Shown here one piece after another: positions 3,629 to 55,842 of a stretch of DNA of 64,000 bases (its first letter is position 1; each line of letters begins with the position of its first letter). Origin of the DNA: Candidatus Aminicenantaceae bacterium (GTDB taxonomy: Bacteria > Acidobacteriota > Aminicenantia > Aminicenantales > Aminicenantaceae); the NCBI GenBank assembly GCA_041862375.1, contig JBGVTE010000091.1, positions 18,975-82,974 of the forward strand. Direction: 5' to 3'. Under the pieces are notes generated by a model that had not been told where the DNA came from, made no database searches, and saw only the letters and a list, made by a program, of their open reading frames with translations. A program made the position numbers and the translations under genes.

Positions 3629-4019
3629 CTTAAACCTCCAATTGACATAATAATATTATCAATAATATAAAAAAAATAAAGAGCCAATTATAACAATTTT
3701 ATATAAGCCAATTCTAGAAACTTGAATTTAACTTTCTCTTCTTGGTCAGTAAAATATATATTTCATATTTTCTATAGTCATCATCAATTCACTTCTGCTG
3801 AAAATAGCCGGTGCATAAGTGTGCCCAAACCTTACAGTCTCTTCCCCCTATTTCTCTGTGTTTGACCACAAGGTTTCTCTATGATATAGGTTGTAAGGGA
3901 TGTCAGAGAACGGAAATCGAACGAAAATGTGAGTAAAACACGGCTCTCAAGAAATTATTATCGTCTTTTCTTGAAGAGACAAGCTCTGCTGAAGAACAAA
4001 CTTAAGTACGACAAAAAGA

Positions 4020-5774
4020 ATGAAATACTTCCGAAAGGATAATGTAATGATCCGTACATTACGTTCAAAAAATCAATCGAATAGCCGGCTTTTTCTTGTT
4101 TTTATGGTCGGATTGGCGATTTTTTTGTCTCAGGTCTTGGTCTGCAAAAAATCTGAGCCAAGCAAGGTTCAGATCACTACTGATGTTAACAGGGATGGAA
4201 AGGTTGAATTCAGAACGGATAAGCAGGGGAAAAACGAATGGACTCCTGAGCGAGGAGCTATTTTCCTTAATAACAATGACAGTGACCAGGACACAAATGA
4301 GCCCGACTATGCTGATGATGTTATTAATGGACAGGAAGACATTAAAGATCTTTCAGTCATCAAGATCAGACAAATCCATGATCTGCCGGAGGATTCTCAA
4401 GTTGATATTTCTGTCGACGAAGCATCCATGTCCCGGGTTCGCTTATTCGTGAAGACAGCAAAAAATGAGTATAAAAACCTAACTTTATCAGCTAAATCCA
4501 ATATAAATCCTGCACAGTTGAGAAATGGTGACCTGGAACTGAGAATAGAAGCAAATTCCTATGCGGACAGCACCTGGACCGGTGAAACGACTGTTACACT
4601 CACTGTGAACCGTCCCGATGGAGAAACAGAATCCGACGCAATCATGCTCAAAGTCGCCCCGTTCATTCTACTGTCCAACCTCAATAAGGGAAGTGCTCTT
4701 TATGTGAGAGAATTCCCTGGGAGGAATGACTCTTTCCTGGAGAGTCTGAGGGAGCTTTTACCCGCTGCCGGTGCTGAGTTGGTTGTGGTCCCTGCGGGAG
4801 ATCCCTATCCTCCCCATCAAATATGGCTCCAGGACGCTCTGGAGATTGGCTACTCGGAGATCCCGGGTCATAAGATGAATGTGGTTTTAAAAGCCAACCG
4901 CGGCAGGCCTCTCGATGATTATGCAAAGCAAGAGCTCATGGGGCCTGATTTCGGCTGGATCCAAGTCGGAACATTCCGAAAAGACTACGGTGGGGGAAGG
5001 CGCAGCAACGGCTGGCTGGACTGGTATGGAAACCTGGAAGTCACCCCGCCATTACCCGGATATCCATTCGGCCGGTTTTACTGCGGATACAATCCGGATG
5101 GACCTGAAGAGGCATCTTTGAATCCAGAGATCATTAGTATGCTCGAAGCTCAAAAAATCCAGGGCCCTGCATTACGTCTCGATACAGGATGGCTGCTGAT
5201 AAAACACGTAGACGAAGTTATATCCTTCCTGCCCAGCGGTAATCCTGAACGTCCTTACAAAGTCCTTGTTGTTGATACAGGGTCCATGATTGCCCTACTT
5301 GAAAAATGGATGGAAGAAGGACATGGCGAAACACAGATGCTTGGTCTCTCTTCCAAAAAAATGACCATAAAAGCCCTCTATGAAAATAAAGAGCTCATGG
5401 AACTGAATAAATCTCTTCAAAAGGCACGAATCGAACCGAATATCGATCTTCTCAAAAGTGAGCTGCGCCTGGTGGAGGAGGATTTTATCAGAGTACCTAT
5501 CCTCATTGATAAGTATGGAACCGCTGTCGTTCCCAACATGGTCAATTCCACAATTCTGAATGGACATATCCTGATTGTTGCTCCCAACGGCCCTGAGATA
5601 GATGGAAAAGACCAACTAGAAGAGGAGATGCGCAGGCTCCTTTCTGGCCTGCCATTAAAACTGCACTTTCTAGATGCAATCCTCTATCACAATTGGGGAG
5701 GTGAAGTCCACTGCGCTACAAATGTGAGACGCGATGGATTTCAAACTCCGTGGTGGACCATAAAACACCCATAG
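4020..5774 (+). CDS. Secreted/membrane-anchored protein-arginine deiminase (PAD) family homologue
   Basis: The C-terminus GGEVHCATNVRRDGFQTPWW matches the catalytic-Cys region of vertebrate PADs (GEVHCGTNVRR..F..WW). The blocks WLQDALEIGY and MGPDFGW resemble PAD WMQDEMEIGY / MGPDFGY. N-terminal hydrophobic signal/anchor (LFLVFMVGLAIFLSQVLVC). An alternative start is at 4047. Confidence 0.6.
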   Translation: MKYFRKDNVMIRTLRSKNQSNSRLFLVFMVGLAIFLSQVLVCKKSEPSKVQITTDVNRDGKVEFRTDKQGKNEWTPERGAIFLNNNDSDQDTNEPDYADDVINGQEDIKDLSVIKIRQIHDLPEDSQVDISVDEASMSRVRLFVKTAKNEYKNLTLSAKSNINPAQLRNGDLELRIEANSYADSTWTGETTVTLTVNRPDGETESDAIMLKVAPFILLSNLNKGSALYVREFPGRNDSFLESLRELLPAAGAELVVVPAGDPYPPHQIWLQDALEIGYSEIPGHKMNVVLKANRGRPLDDYAKQELMGPDFGWIQVGTFRKDYGGGRRSNGWLDWYGNLEVTPPLPGYPFGRFYCGYNPDGPEEASLNPEIISMLEAQKIQGPALRLDTGWLLIKHVDEVISFLPSGNPERPYKVLVVDTGSMIALLEKWMEEGHGETQMLGLSSKKMTIKALYENKELMELNKSLQKARIEPNIDLLKSELRLVEEDFIRVPILIDKYGTAVVPNMVNSTILNGHILIVAPNGPEIDGKDQLEEEMRRLLSGLPLKLHFLDAILYHNWGGEVHCATNVRRDGFQTPWWTIKHP

Positions 5775-5824: not shown

Positions 5825-6133
5825 GTGTTGGGTATCTGGTATTTAGAGAGGGAGCTGAAAAGAGTATTGGGAGAGGAGAAAAGGGAAACAGTCGAAAAGC
5901 TCAAATCTCTGGCTTTGGAAGGCAATGCCGAAGAAATAGTGAAACGATTGATGAAAGAAGTCTCAACTGATTTAGAGAAATCAGCGAAGATCTTCCAGGT
6001 GGCCGAATATGTGATGAACAATGCCGAATGGATCGGAAACATCCCCAAGGCCAAGGGATATGGATCCGGTCCTGTTGAAAAAACAGTATATATAACAGTA
6101 TCGAGAAGGTTTAAGAGAAGAGGGATGAGTTAG
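5825..6133 (+). CDS. Hypothetical charged small protein
   Basis: ORF only. No recognisable motif. Confidence 0.2.
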   Translation: MLGIWYLERELKRVLGEEKRETVEKLKSLALEGNAEEIVKRLMKEVSTDLEKSAKIFQVAEYVMNNAEWIGNIPKAKGYGSGPVEKTVYITVSRRFKRRGMS

Positions 6134-6247
6134 TATCGGCATGGAGTGAATCCTCTTCTTCAGATGAGGTTGTTGAAACTAAATGGAGACTGGGATGCTT
6201 ATTGGGATGAAAGAAAAGAGGAGGTAGCTCGATATGCAGCTTAAATG

Positions 6248-6271
6248 CCATCACGGAAAAAAAGATGCTTC
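6248..6271. repeat. Solo copy of the CATCACGGAAAAAAAGATGCTTCC repeat
   Basis: catcacggaaaaaaagatgcttcc. Same 24-mer family as 51213-51234 and the ends of the 54828-55117 element. Confidence 0.45.
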
Positions 6272-6464
6272 CAATTCACAGCAACTGAATATGAAAATTT
6301 ATCTTTTTTTACTAATACACATTTATAAATCTAATAAAACTACCTCCTAAAAATGGATTATTTTTATAAAACAAACATTCAATTCTTGAACTAAGGGCTA
6401 ATTTATAATTTTTAATTCATAGAAAACAAAAATGTTCAAAGAAAGGCATTATCACTTTAATCGT

Positions 6465-6553: not shown

Positions 6554-7768
6554 ATGAAAAGTATGGATGATTACCTTCCGATTGTAGGAGAAAAGATCAT
6601 AGGGAATATTTATCAGCGGGCCCACAGGCTAATTAACAAGCATATCGTCCATATAAATTCAACTGCTCATGGTGGGGGAGTAGCTGAAATTCTGAATAAT
6701 TTAATTGTTCTCCTCAACGATATAGGAATTGATGTGGGCTGGAGAGTCTTGATTGGACCAACAGATTTTTTCAGTGTAACAAAAAAATTCCATAATGGCC
6801 TTCAAGGAGATTCTATCAACTTATCAGGCAATAAAAAGAAACTCTATTTAGATACTAATGAGAGATTTTCCAAGTTTACTCACTTGGGTCATGATTGTGT
6901 CATCATTCACGACCCTCAACCGCTCCCTTTGATTAAATTCAGTAAAAAGAAACAACCATGGATTTGGCGATGCCACATTGACATCACAAATCCAAACGAG
7001 GATGTCTGGAACTTCATCAAATCTTTTATCCTCCGCTATGATCTAATGGTGATTTCAAGTAAACGATTTAAAAAAAAGGATATCCCTCTTGAACAGAGAA
7101 TTATCCATCCATCTATTGATCCCTTATCTATGAAAAATATTTATCTATCCGACGAGGTTATTTCGAAAATATTGACGAAATTTTCTATTCCGACAGACAA
7201 ACCATTAATAACTCAAGTTTCACGTTTCGATCCCTGGAAAGATCCGGAAGGTGTTTTGAAAGTTTTTGAAATTGTTAAAGAGAAAATAGGCTGCCGTCTT
7301 GTTTACTGCTATAACATGGCTCCGGATGATCCTGAGGGAATCATCATCTATAACAAGATGAGAAAGAAGGCTAATAAATATTTAGAAAAGGGAGATGTCC
7401 TTTTTGTTCTTGGAGATAATCAGGTTTTGGTCAACGTATTGCAGAGAATATCTTCAGTCATTCTTCAGAAATCAACGAGGGAAGGATTTGGTCTAACTGT
7501 CGCTGAATCTCAATGGAAAGGAACACCTGTTGTGGCTTCCAATATTGGAGGAATTCCAGAGCAAATTATTGATAACGAAACAGGATTCCTTGTTGATCCC
7601 TATGATATCCCAGGATGTGCTGACAGAGTTATTACCCTGCTTAAAGATAAAAAATTAGCTAAAGATATGGGAAGAAAAGGAAAAGAATTCATTAAAAAAA
7701 ATTTTCTCATCACCCGCCATATTACCGATTATCTGAATCTTATGATAGATGTTCTGAACAATTATTAA
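6554..7768 (+). CDS. treT: Trehalose glycosyltransferring synthase TreT-like (GT4 glycosyltransferase)
   Basis: The blocks VHINSTAHGGGVAEIL, WRCHIDI, ITQVSRFDPWKDP, APDDPEG, REGFGLTVAE and NFLITRH match archaeal/Thermotoga TreT as recalled from memory. Adjacent to otsA-otsB. Confidence 0.65.
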   Translation: MKSMDDYLPIVGEKIIGNIYQRAHRLINKHIVHINSTAHGGGVAEILNNLIVLLNDIGIDVGWRVLIGPTDFFSVTKKFHNGLQGDSINLSGNKKKLYLDTNERFSKFTHLGHDCVIIHDPQPLPLIKFSKKKQPWIWRCHIDITNPNEDVWNFIKSFILRYDLMVISSKRFKKKDIPLEQRIIHPSIDPLSMKNIYLSDEVISKILTKFSIPTDKPLITQVSRFDPWKDPEGVLKVFEIVKEKIGCRLVYCYNMAPDDPEGIIIYNKMRKKANKYLEKGDVLFVLGDNQVLVNVLQRISSVILQKSTREGFGLTVAESQWKGTPVVASNIGGIPEQIIDNETGFLVDPYDIPGCADRVITLLKDKKLAKDMGRKGKEFIKKNFLITRHITDYLNLMIDVLNNY

Positions 7769-12221: not shown

Positions 12222-12470
12222 AATACAAACTTCAATCTAGAATCTATTTATATTAAGCACACTAAAATTTTGCTTTATTTTACCTTTTTTTCTCCCATTA
12301 ATTTTCATGAGATTTTAAGTTTCTTTTCTACTTTATTAAGCAATGTATAATTTTATTTAAATCACTACTCTGCAAGTCCCATTTGTGTTCAAATTACATC
12401 CCCCTAGCCCTATGTTCACTGATCATTTCTAGGCGCACTTCTTTTTGATTTTATTTTTTTCTGATTTCTG

Positions 12471-12512
12471 AATTTATAAAAGTTATGAAAGTTATGAAAG
12501 CCTGACCCCAAT
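12471..12512. repeat. Solo arm of the GGGGTCAGGCTTT-terminated MITE-like repeat, with internal TTATGAAAG duplication
   Basis: The sequence aatttataaaagttatgaaagttatgaaagcctgaccccaat matches the arms of the 42268-42389 palindrome. It ends 1 bp before the -35 at 12514. Confidence 0.5.
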
Positions 12513-21480: not shown

Positions 21481-21734
21481 TTTTCTATCCTGAGAGAAAA
21501 CATGGATTTTAATTTCCCTAATTCTATATCAGAATGCTGGCTTTGACAAGAAAAAAATAACTGTAATCATCTATTTTTCCGTGATTAGAGATGAAGCAGT
21601 CATCAGCAAGGAGGTATGCGGCTTCCCTGATTGTCAATTATGAATACATTTCATCATTAATAGCAATTAAATATTCTTTTAACGAAAAATCCCATAGACA
21701 GGAAGACAAGTGAGACGAAATAGACTGTTTCATT

Positions 21735-42267: not shown

Positions 42268-42389
42268 TTGGGGTCAGGCTTTCATAAGTTTTATAAATTG
42301 AATTTTTTCTAATCTTTCATTGTAACCCTAGCTTTTATTTCTTCCTGGTAAACAATAAATTATAAAAGTTATGAAAGCCTGACCCCAAT
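42268..42389. repeat. ~122-bp palindromic MITE-like element with ~31-bp terminal inverted repeats ending in GGGGTCAGGCTTT / AAAGCCTGACCCC
   Basis: The arm ttggggtcaggctttcataagttttataaatt at 42268-42299 is inverted at 42357-42389 with 1-2 mismatches. Located in the gyrB / DRG-GTPase divergent intergenic region. Its right end is 5 bp from the -35 at 42395. Confidence 0.55.
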
Positions 42390-51212: not shown

Positions 51213-51234
51213 CATCACGGAAAAAAAGATGCTT
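51213..51234. repeat. Solo copy of the CATCACGGAAAAAAAGATGCTT repeat with an adjacent partial element (51150-51212)
   Basis: catcacggaaaaaaagatgctt. The upstream ggatacggttgaagagaaaaaggcg resembles 54884-54910 inside the composite element. Confidence 0.45.
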
Positions 51235-51601
51235 ACTTATTATTTTTGCAATTTTTTTATAAATCAATACAATAGAGTTTATTTCAGTTCAAGCTAAAAT
51301 ATTTTTTTATCAGTCAAATTTATCTCGAAAAAGGAGGAAGAAGTAAAAACACCACTTCATTAAAAGAAAAAACGCCGCTCTTGCCTATAGGTGGGATATG
51401 CTTTACCACAGATAGAAATCTAGACGAGTAAAAAAGTGACTCATTGATTTGATTTCGTAATTTTGATACCTTGTTTTTGACTTGAATATCCCTGGGATAA
51501 GGATTTATCATGAAAAAATGCCAAGGAGTAACATTGAAGCCCTCAACTAATATGGATAGAAAAGCTTGATTCCAATAATATTGATTTACAAAGGAGGTGC
51601 A

Positions 51602-53400: not shown

Positions 53401-54792
53401 ATGGATTTTTTTGATCGATCAATCCGCTTCTTGGGTTCCTTAGTCTGGGGCCCTCAGACAGTCATTCTCCTCTTGGGTGTTGGGCTGTATCTGACTTTTC
53501 GCCTGCGCTTTGTCCAGTTGAAACGCCTCGGACTTTCATTTCGTTTTCTTATCAGTCAGAGAGATTACGGAGAAAGTAGGAAAGAACGAACAGGAGACAT
53601 TTCACCTTTCCAGGCATTAACCACATCATTGGCATGTACTGTCGGAAATGGAAATATCGCCGGGGTTTGCACAGCTATTGCCATGGGTGGGCCTGGAGCA
53701 GTGTTCTGGATGTGGCTTTCTGCTTTTTTCGGTATGGCGACAAAGCTGGTAGAAGCTGTCTTGGGTCAGAAATTTAGGAAAGTTGCCCCTGACGGGACCA
53801 TAGCTGGAGGTCCCATGTTTTACATAAGTAAAGGGCTGAATCTCCCCTGGCTAGCTGGTCTCTTTGCTTTCTTTATGGGCTGTAAACCTCTATTTTCTAC
53901 CACTACCATCCAGTCTAACTCTATTGCTCTGGCACTGAAGACCCAGTTGGGACTAGAGCCCTGGATCTCCGGACTCGGGTTGGCTATCCTAACCTGGTTG
54001 GTCATCATCGGTGGAATTAAATCTATAGCCAAAGTAACAGAATTTTTAAGCCCATTCATGGTACTTTTGTACATATTTGGTGCTCTGTTTGTCATCATTG
54101 TTTTTGCATCCCGCCTTCCTCACGCTTTTTACCTCATCTTTGTAGGAGCTTTCAAACCTTCAGCTATAGCTGGAGGAGTGGCAGGCATGACAGTACTCAG
54201 GGCCATGCGTTATGGGCTTGCCCGCGGAGCTTATTCGAATGAAGCGGGGACAGGAACAGCAGCTGTCTTCCATGCAACGGCCAGAACGAGTGAGCCTGTT
54301 CGACAAGGCCTGATTGCCTCATTAGATGTATTTATAGACACTATTGTGATATGCAGTCTCACTGCACTTGCAGTGCTTGTGAGCGGAGCATGGACAGAGG
54401 GAACAAGCACCGGAATGACAGCCGCTGCTTTTAACGCTGGTCTTCCCAGGATTGGTGGTTTGGTTGTCGCGGCAAGTTCTTTTCTCTTTGGCTATTCGAG
54501 CCTCATCGCTGTTCCTTATTACGGAGAAATATCCTTCAGCTATCTACTTGGAATCTGGATAAAACGACCTTTCCGATGGATTTTTTGCCTTGTGATTTTC
54601 ATCGGTGCAGTGCTCGAAGTTGAAGTAGCCTGGTCTATCGGAGATGTCTTCAACGGTATGATGGCCTTTACTAATTTAATTGGTATAGTTGGATTATCCA
54701 GTCTGGCTATTGTCTATGTAAAAAAATATTTACTAGAAATAGACAGGAAAAGAAAATCACATAATTCCTCAAACAAATTGTTCAAAGATTAG
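53401..54792 (+). CDS. Alanine/glycine:cation symporter (AGCS family)
   Basis: The N-terminus FDRSIRFLGSLVWGPQTVILLLGVGLYLTFRLRFVQLK is typical of AGCS transporters. ~11 TM helices. Confidence 0.85.
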   Translation: MDFFDRSIRFLGSLVWGPQTVILLLGVGLYLTFRLRFVQLKRLGLSFRFLISQRDYGESRKERTGDISPFQALTTSLACTVGNGNIAGVCTAIAMGGPGAVFWMWLSAFFGMATKLVEAVLGQKFRKVAPDGTIAGGPMFYISKGLNLPWLAGLFAFFMGCKPLFSTTTIQSNSIALALKTQLGLEPWISGLGLAILTWLVIIGGIKSIAKVTEFLSPFMVLLYIFGALFVIIVFASRLPHAFYLIFVGAFKPSAIAGGVAGMTVLRAMRYGLARGAYSNEAGTGTAAVFHATARTSEPVRQGLIASLDVFIDTIVICSLTALAVLVSGAWTEGTSTGMTAAAFNAGLPRIGGLVVAASSFLFGYSSLIAVPYYGEISFSYLLGIWIKRPFRWIFCLVIFIGAVLEVEVAWSIGDVFNGMMAFTNLIGIVGLSSLAIVYVKKYLLEIDRKRKSHNSSNKLFKD

Positions 54793-54827
54793 CAATACTC
54801 ACGCAACATTCATAGAGAATAAGAAAT

Positions 54828-55117
54828 GGAAGCATCTTTTTTCCCATGATGAAAATTAAAATAGTCATTAAGCGATGGGCATACGGCTTGAAGGCACGCT
54901 CGCTTTGCCCCAGCAAGTCAAAGCGGCTCGATTCAAGCTTCGCTCTTCTCTCGGGGTCAGGCTTTGTCATTATGGTGAGCATTGGAATATTTTTATGCTT
55001 TGGGCATCTTTTCGTAATAAAGCCTGACCCCAGAACCATGCCCGCTCAGCCTTCATACGACCTTCTTCACCGTATGCCCACGCTTGTCTTTCCTTATCAC
55101 GGAAAAAAGATGCGGAC
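54828..55117. repeat. ~290-bp composite repeat element with outer inverted repeats and a nested GGGGTCAGGCTTT...AAAGCCTGACCCC palindrome
   Basis: Left end is ggaagcatcttttttcccatgatg (54828-54851) and right end is atcacggaaaaaagatgcggac (55096-55117). Inner inverted repeat at 54962-54974 / 55028-55040. Confidence 0.5.
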
Positions 55118-55200
55118 GCAAGAAATATAATGTTGATTTTTTTTAAAAACCTATATATTGTAGGCGTATCAAAATTGACGAGGGATTCAGGAAAAAACTC

Positions 55201-55842
55201 ATGAGAATTGCAAAAGAAGGATTACCTTTCATGGCACCTTTTTTTGTTTTAGCTATTATTTCAATCATAATCGGCTACTGGCACATTTCTATAATCTTCT
55301 TAATCATAGCTTTCTGCTTTATCTATTTTTTTCGTGATCCTCAACGCAAAATTCCCCAAAATAAAAACCTGCTGACATCTCCTGCTGATGGAAAAATAGT
55401 GAAAATTCAAACGGTTGAATCACATCCTTCTTTTCCTTCTTCTGTGACAATAGTAAGCATTTTCTTATCCCTTTTTGATGTCCATATAACACGATCTCCC
55501 CTTTTCGGAATTGTCAAAGAAATGGAGAATAAGCCTGGCCAATTCTTTCCAGCATACAAGGATGAAGCTAGTTCAAGAAATAAATCCAATTCACTATTCA
55601 TAGACGGCAATGAAGTAAACATTCTTATCAAGCAGATTGCAGGTGTATTAGCACGCAGAATAAAATGTTTTGTCGAGAAAAACAGGAGAATTAAGCAAGG
55701 AGAAAAAATAGGCTTGATCTATTTTGGTTCCAGGGTCGAGGTATTTCTTCCCCAGGGATTAGACATAAAAATTAATGTTGGCCAAAAAGTCAAAGCAGGA
55801 GAAACAGTAATTGCTGAGATAACAAAGAGAGAAGGATATTGA
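55201..55842 (+). CDS. psd: Phosphatidylserine decarboxylase proenzyme (short archaeal-type form)
   Basis: FRDPQRK...SPADGKIV...LSLFDVHITRSP...GEKIGLIYFGSRVEVFLP, with the GS self-cleavage site near the C-terminus. Overlaps pssA by 4 nt. Confidence 0.8.
   Translation: MRIAKEGLPFMAPFFVLAIISIIIGYWHISIIFLIIAFCFIYFFRDPQRKIPQNKNLLTSPADGKIVKIQTVESHPSFPSSVTIVSIFLSLFDVHITRSPLFGIVKEMENKPGQFFPAYKDEASSRNKSNSLFIDGNEVNILIKQIAGVLARRIKCFVEKNRRIKQGEKIGLIYFGSRVEVFLPQGLDIKINVGQKVKAGETVIAEITKREGY

Follow-up and report, generated by a model that had tools for sequence, protein, structure and literature searches.

The Correia elements of Neisseria, the RUP elements of Streptococcus pneumoniae and the ERIC elements are small, non-coding, intergenic MITEs that form hairpins and are often nested or decayed, and REP/REPIN elements are moved by RAYT transposases. 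Plant Mutator-like elements, including Pack-MULEs, generate 9-bp duplications, carry foreign cargo and favour the 5′ side of genes. The TnGBS, ISLre2 and ISKra4 transposons are also Mutator-like, with inverted repeats of 18–39 bp and duplications of 8–9 bp; for TnGBS, ISLre2 and part of ISKra4, insertion is reported 15–17 bases before the −35 box of a sigma-A promoter (Guerillot et al. 2014, PMC3942029), and non-autonomous plant Mutator-like elements, including Pack-MULEs, are mentioned in the same study. In the literature that we searched, there was no report of short non-autonomous derivatives of prokaryotic Mutator-like insertion sequences (ISs). Here we describe a 290-bp element in a 64-kb window (the whole stretch of DNA that was analysed) of a Candidatus Aminicenantaceae genome. 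The element is most probably a decayed, three-layer MITE with Mutator-like IS ends that was moved in trans and now lies upstream of the putative psd–pssA promoter. Our analysis indicates that short non-autonomous derivatives of prokaryotic Mutator-like ISs exist and retain their parents' targeting of sites upstream of promoters. The window copy is itself a decayed bystander, ordinary in kind.

The element (window 54828–55117) lies between the Na:alanine symporter gene (53401–54792) and psd (55201–55842), and contains three nested inverted repeats (Table 1). The initial annotation had described the outer ends as inverted copies of one sequence, which direct reading and the perfect 13-nt outermost pair bear out, and the repeat positions that it gave were all recovered as inverted-repeat pairs and by direct reading. 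It had also proposed that one element family was nested within another; the nesting holds, but there are three layers and not two. A 20-mer end motif, allowing up to 3 mismatches, has three matches in the window (at 6249, 51213 and 54832) compared with 0.06 expected, and the right end of the element at 55096 is a fourth copy that carries a one-base deletion. The sequence GGGGTCAGGCTTT, which borders the innermost layer, occurs 5 times in the window (0.06 expected). Whichever strand is folded, the 290 nt form a single long, imperfect hairpin, with z-scores of −4.4 (+) and −5.2 (−) as RNA and −6.9 as DNA. Inverted repeats at the borders, an intergenic position and hairpin formation are features shared with the Correia, RUP and ERIC elements. 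The window element differs from these in its parent transposase family, its 9-bp duplication, its location upstream of a promoter and its modular interior, in which one palindrome lies within another.

Table 1. Features of the element, its surroundings and related sequences in the 64-kb window
Feature	Position	Strand	Details
Left target-site duplication, 9 bp	54819-54827	.	ATAAGAAAT
Left terminal inverted repeat	54828-54851	+	GGAAGCATCTTTTTTCCCATGATG; same motif ends the IS in L046 and L192-L198
Outermost inverted-repeat pair	54832-54844 / 55101-55113		13 nt, perfect
Middle inverted-repeat pair	54876-54886 / 55070-55080		11 nt, perfect
Palindromic core, left arm	54876-54952	+	Outer stem 54876-54886 plus P1 hairpin
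P1 hairpin	54901-54925		CGCTTTG, 11-nt loop CCCCAGCAAGT, CAAAGCG
Apex piece, 79 nt	54953-55031	.	13-nt inverted repeat GGGGTCAGGCTTT / AAAGCCTGACCCC at its borders
Innermost inverted-repeat pair	54953-54965 / 55019-55031		13 nt, perfect; GGGGTCAGGCTTT / AAAGCCTGACCCC
Palindromic core, right arm	55032-55080	+	Outer stem 55070-55080
Right terminal inverted repeat	55096-55117	-	ATCACGGAAAAAAGATGCGGAC; reverse complement GTCCGCATCTTTTTTCCGTGAT
Right target-site duplication, 9 bp	55118-55126	.	GCAAGAAAT
Putative sigma-70-type psd promoter	55133-55161	+	TTGATT (55133-55138), 17-nt spacer, TATTGT (55156-55161)
Internal ORF	54846-55130	+	94 aa
Internal ORF	54782-55039	-	
Decayed right end of same-family autonomous IS	5830-6272	+	Transposase pseudogene 5830-6245 and terminal repeat 6249-6272
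Solo terminal repeat	51213-51236	-	Reverse complement GTAAGCATCTTTTTTTCCGTGATG; ~8 nt of adjoining linker

The element encodes no transposase. The two ORFs within it had been considered spurious at the outset, and our searches agree: neither has a match in Pfam, and the 94-aa ORF is an orphan that forms a singleton cluster among about 15 billion proteins. Among 1.84 billion representatives it has 8 short, patchy matches, each over another part of the query, which is what ORFs called on repeats would be expected to show. Furthermore, this ORF spans three layers of differing origin, and a comparison of the core copies showed no preference for any one open frame. Although NCBI lists the 94-aa ORF as a hypothetical protein (ACETWK_08305), it is therefore extremely improbable that the internal ORFs are real small genes, and we regard this entry as a spurious call on a repeat. 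Searches for structured RNA gave no match to Rfam at the element when the window was scanned at the gathering threshold, and only chance-level matches (E ≥ 0.1) when two well-preserved core copies were searched up to E = 10. ARAGORN identified only two unrelated tRNAs in the window.

The terminal inverted repeats that bound the element are those of an ISKra4/ISLre2-like IS (Pfam UPF0236, Mutator-like DDE). In L046, a locus from a Nitrospiraceae MAG, a 426-aa ORF stops 23 bp short of the end motif and matches UPF0236 (E = 2e-21) as well as the NCBIfam models of ISKra4 (189 bits) and ISLre2 (153 bits). The associated transposases match UPF0236 clearly and score 167–189 bits for ISKra4 (cut-off, 205) and 151–159 bits for ISLre2 (cut-off, 200); as both ranges are below the cut-offs, the lineage is placed in neither named family. 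Full-length ISs of ~1.39 kb (L192–L198), which were reached only by using L046 as the query, consist of GGAAGCATCCCCAAAACCGTGATGG, an 84-nt leader, a 423-aa gene and ...CACGGAAATAAGGATGCTTAC, in this order. P0221, a full-length transposase of this set, is 86% identical to the transposase remnant in the window; the homologues retrieved with the remnant itself were all fragments of ≤220 aa. A first scan of the genome collection with the end motif returned 109 loci, most of which are chance matches owing to the shortness of the motif. Informative were only the genomes with several matches, in which the sequence is unique outside the end motif and family-specific inside it.

Several features of the element are those of ISKra4, ISLre2 and TnGBS (p-MULT 3 and 4; PMC3942029). 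The terminal repeats of these transposons end in C; those of the element, at ~22–24 nt, are within the 18–39-bp range, and they begin with G (C on the complementary strand) at 54828 and finish with C at 55117. The likeness extends to the 9-bp duplication, to insertion 15–17 nt upstream of a −35 box and to the UPF0236 transposase of related autonomous copies. By contrast, the window element contains no transposase gene, and the sequence inside it bears no relationship to the IS.

The window contains one full copy of the element, one IS remnant and two solo ends. Two further copies of the end sequence had been noted as solo copies, a description that fits only the one at 51213. The other directly follows a transposase remnant and is thus the right end of a decayed IS. 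The pseudogene in this remnant retains the C-terminal 138 residues, is interrupted by an in-frame TAG (6131–6133) and is 60% identical (E = 6e-49) to the C terminus of the L046 transposase. The solo repeat is missing from the shorter orthologous spacer of L184. As there is no intact transposase in the window, we infer that the element was mobilized in trans by a transposase like that of the pseudogene. The window copy would now be immobile, given the absence of an intact transposase from the window and the mutated right tip of the element (GGAA/GTAA changed to GTCC).

Some neighbouring features of these IS-related sequences were also recorded. Outward of the solo repeat (51213–51272) comes a good sigma-70-like promoter (TTGCAA, 16 nt, TACAAT), which precedes the PPIase gene at 51566 and is offset from the tip by 9 nt and not 15–17. 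Another IS-end-like sequence, GTAATCATCTATTTTTCCGTGAT, is located at 21563–21585 (+) with no partner nearby. The IS remnant adjoins the 3′ end of a 584-aa ORF (4020–5774, +) with eukaryote-type protein-arginine deiminase domains (PAD, E = 2e-77; PAD_M, E = 4e-15).

Insertion of the element would have produced a 9-bp target duplication, of which 7 positions are identical today. Examination of the flanks for a target-site duplication revealed this imperfect 9-bp pair, ATAAGAAAT and GCAAGAAAT; we estimate that agreement at 7 of 9 positions has a chance probability of roughly 0.004 in AT-rich DNA. Perfect 9-bp duplications flank five related elements (L105 6397–6794, L105 about 6975–7139, L044, L186 and L134, the last read from the flanks displayed in an alignment), and the duplication in L012 matches at 8 of 9 positions. 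The imperfect duplication and the diverged right tip of the window copy count against the MITE reading, and so does the presence of a single full copy in the 64 kb. At the four readable insertion sites of full-length ISs (L192–L198) there is no clean 9-bp duplication, unlike at those of the short elements.

The window, L184 and L185 share the gene order PPIase, DUF3800, Na:Ala symporter, psd and pssA, and these relatives lack the element at the syntenic site, where the symporter–psd spacer is 141 bp in length compared with 408 bp in the window. The relatives are distant, as their psd genes are 68% identical to that of the window. The psd loci L181 and L186 also lack the element. The alignment of the window with L184 and L185 restarts at the right boundary of the element (AAGAAAT...ATGTTGATTTT in L184); L184, however, has at the same AAGAAAT boundary a small element of 96 bp that belongs to the GGGTCAGGCTTTCATAA family, so the shared boundary may partly reflect tolerance of insertion. 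An element-free junction at this site would read ...GAGAATAAGAAAT joined directly to ATAATGTTG. In a second assembly of the same species, the contig begins inside the element, which explains the contig break.

The initial annotation had suggested that the element belongs to a second, larger non-autonomous family. This is upheld by the IS-type ends, by the empty syntenic site and by elements of 216–219 bp at unrelated loci (L134, L147 and L156), which contain the palindromic core between the same kind of ends and are collinear with the window copy. The decayed IS of the same family elsewhere in the window raises the alternative that a full-length IS inserted upstream of psd and was then shrunk in place by internal deletion, without ever moving as a small unit. 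We consider this highly unlikely, because short elements at unrelated loci align with the window copy over its whole length (among the three compared, one has a perfect 9-bp duplication) and because no IS-derived sequence was seen to separate the ends from the core; neither the leader nor the transposase gene of the IS resembles the interior. The core, being absent from the IS leader, is cargo. The interior is not derived from the IS, and the core travels between ends of this type in many sediment genomes. Pack-MULEs similarly hold foreign cargo between the ends of a transposon of the same transposase superfamily, but they are eukaryotic and much larger, and their cargo consists of gene fragments, whereas that of the element is a palindromic module.

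Beyond the right end of the element, 15 nt lead to TTGATT, a conserved −35-like hexamer before psd–pssA; upstream of psd in L184 the sequence reads TTGATT, 17 nt, TATGTT. The psd promoter is a prediction from sequence and is under the threshold of the signal scan. Among 47 distinct ends, 13 have a TTG that begins 15–17 nt outside the tip, compared with 0.88 per position elsewhere (Poisson P of about 4e-6; promoters predicted), and the four full-length IS copies lie 16 nt from TTGACA, TTGACA, TTGACT and TTGCAC. The position of the element before the putative psd promoter matches the promoter-upstream targeting that has been published for this transposase group. The element folds strongly on both strands, and 83 bp separate it from the start codon of psd; it might instead serve psd–pssA specifically, as a cis-regulatory leader or as a gene for a small RNA. 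There is very little chance of this: the element is upstream, not downstream, of the putative promoter, is missing at psd in L181 and L186 as well as at the syntenic locus in L184 and L185, and has no Rfam match, and its relatives adjoin unrelated genes (for example, ftsEX in L119). As a decayed MITE, the element would have no function of its own and, at most, may shield psd from read-through from the symporter gene. The signal scan inside the element detected no terminator-like site, and promoter-like matches were weak.

The interior motif was found at 70 metagenome loci (from sediment metagenomes and Aminicenantes MAGs), which define a core of ~150 nt. An nhmmer profile of the core has 108 matches among the fetched loci; in the window, profile positions 13–86 correspond to 54881–54952 (E = 1e-13) and positions 99–144 to 55033–55078 (E = 1.9e-6). 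The core is also present within larger shells (L103 and L105) and within other cores, and many seemingly naked copies retain decayed end-like sequences, as judged by eye. No full-length element with the core's own TCAGGCTGGGTG-type ends was detected in the fetched loci. Spacers that contain the core are divergent in 31 cases and convergent in 6. As a multi-copy intergenic palindrome with compensatory stem changes, the core resembles REP/REPIN elements; it differs from them in that the aligned cores have no conserved GTAG-type head and in that the core is usually located between DDE-type terminal repeats.

The core stems covary: 96% of cells are paired, and in 14 pairs both partners have changed, a level that was reached in 0 of 500 shuffles; slid controls were far lower. 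The compensatory changes involve the outer stem and P1. The window copy keeps an outer stem of 11 bp that is entirely different in sequence, and its P1 shows a matched one-base shortening on both sides relative to the consensus (by eye). Folded as DNA, the consensus core has a z-score of −6.5. The loops are nearly invariant across 32 aligned copies, although this apparent conservation is inflated because the copies were gathered with an exact 25-nt motif. Such observations would be accounted for if the real unit were a functional structured core, acting as RNA or as a single-stranded DNA hairpin and spreading either with the IS-type ends or independently of them, of which the window copy is a long-apex variant. 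We think this unlikely. Matched ends are expected in any subfamily of inverted-repeat elements; the core corresponds to no Rfam family at E values up to 10; its motif is absent from the viral contigs; its orientation relative to co-directional neighbouring genes is unbiased (11 versus 11); and a strand test on stem mismatches (9 G–T, 22 A–C and 21 other, with one doubtful pair excluded) gave no strand signal.

The MITE reading nevertheless leaves the conservation and covariation of the core unexplained, which makes the core a candidate for follow-up. There is a slight chance that the core is more than passive cargo, as a previously undescribed structured module that Mutator-like MITEs, landing just upstream of promoters, have spread among Aminicenantes-type genomes. 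If functional, it might serve as an insulator or terminator hairpin, or transposition itself might need it.

The fetched loci provide further examples of variation around the core. Core-like sequences and IS-type ends are found in L052, L070 and L108, from MAGs labelled as uncultured Eubacteriales, which points to either a wider host range or doubtful taxonomic labels. A palindromic insert of ~110 nt splits the P1 hairpin in L201 (1434–1545), GC-rich sequence of roughly 120 nt (by eye) is inserted at GGCTTCGCT in L131, and whole cores are nested in inverted cores in L124, L174 and L179.

In most relatives there is a short apex hairpin at the place of the 79-nt GGGGTCAGGCTTT piece of the window copy, which lacks the twelve apex positions of the core profile (87–98) and has 54953–55032 in their stead. 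A homologous 79-nt piece is present at the same junction in L201 (1565–1643), with 60 of 80 aligned columns identical (75%). The junction in L201 reads CTCTC / GGGGTCAGACTTT ... AAAGTCTGACCCC / AGAACC, and the ends of the piece carry a compensating change. The similarity between the interiors of the two apex pieces was attained in 0 of 1,000 shuffles. Three spurious ORFs from other datasets (P0286, P0288 and P0289) translate the same junction of core and apex piece; P0290, a close relative, is without the apex piece. Because the same piece occupies the same position in L201, it is inherited within the subfamily, and its acquisition was probably a single event that preceded the spread of the subfamily. 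We also considered whether a small element had recently inserted at this locus and so given rise to the piece; the presence of the piece at the identical site in L201 rules this out. The initial annotation had recognized here the palindrome of a small MITE-like family. The 13-nt GGGGTCAGGCTTT ends are indeed those of this family and are all that the apex piece shares with the free small elements; neither similarity of the interior, which aligns with the 42270 copy and the L184 copy no better than shuffles do, nor insertion at this locus was borne out.

Free small elements with GGGGTCAGGCTTTCATAA ends are found at 42270–42386 and 12470–12509 in the window and at 3858–3953 in L184. In L184, the copy runs across the stop codon of the symporter gene and adjoins the same AAGAAAT as the window element. 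Viral contigs contain three matches to the end of the small element, one of which is a cluster. In L189 (about 5250–5460; IMG/VR UViG_3300010935_000274, classed as viral), 3–4 TATGAAAGCCTGACCCCA ends occur within ~200 nt.
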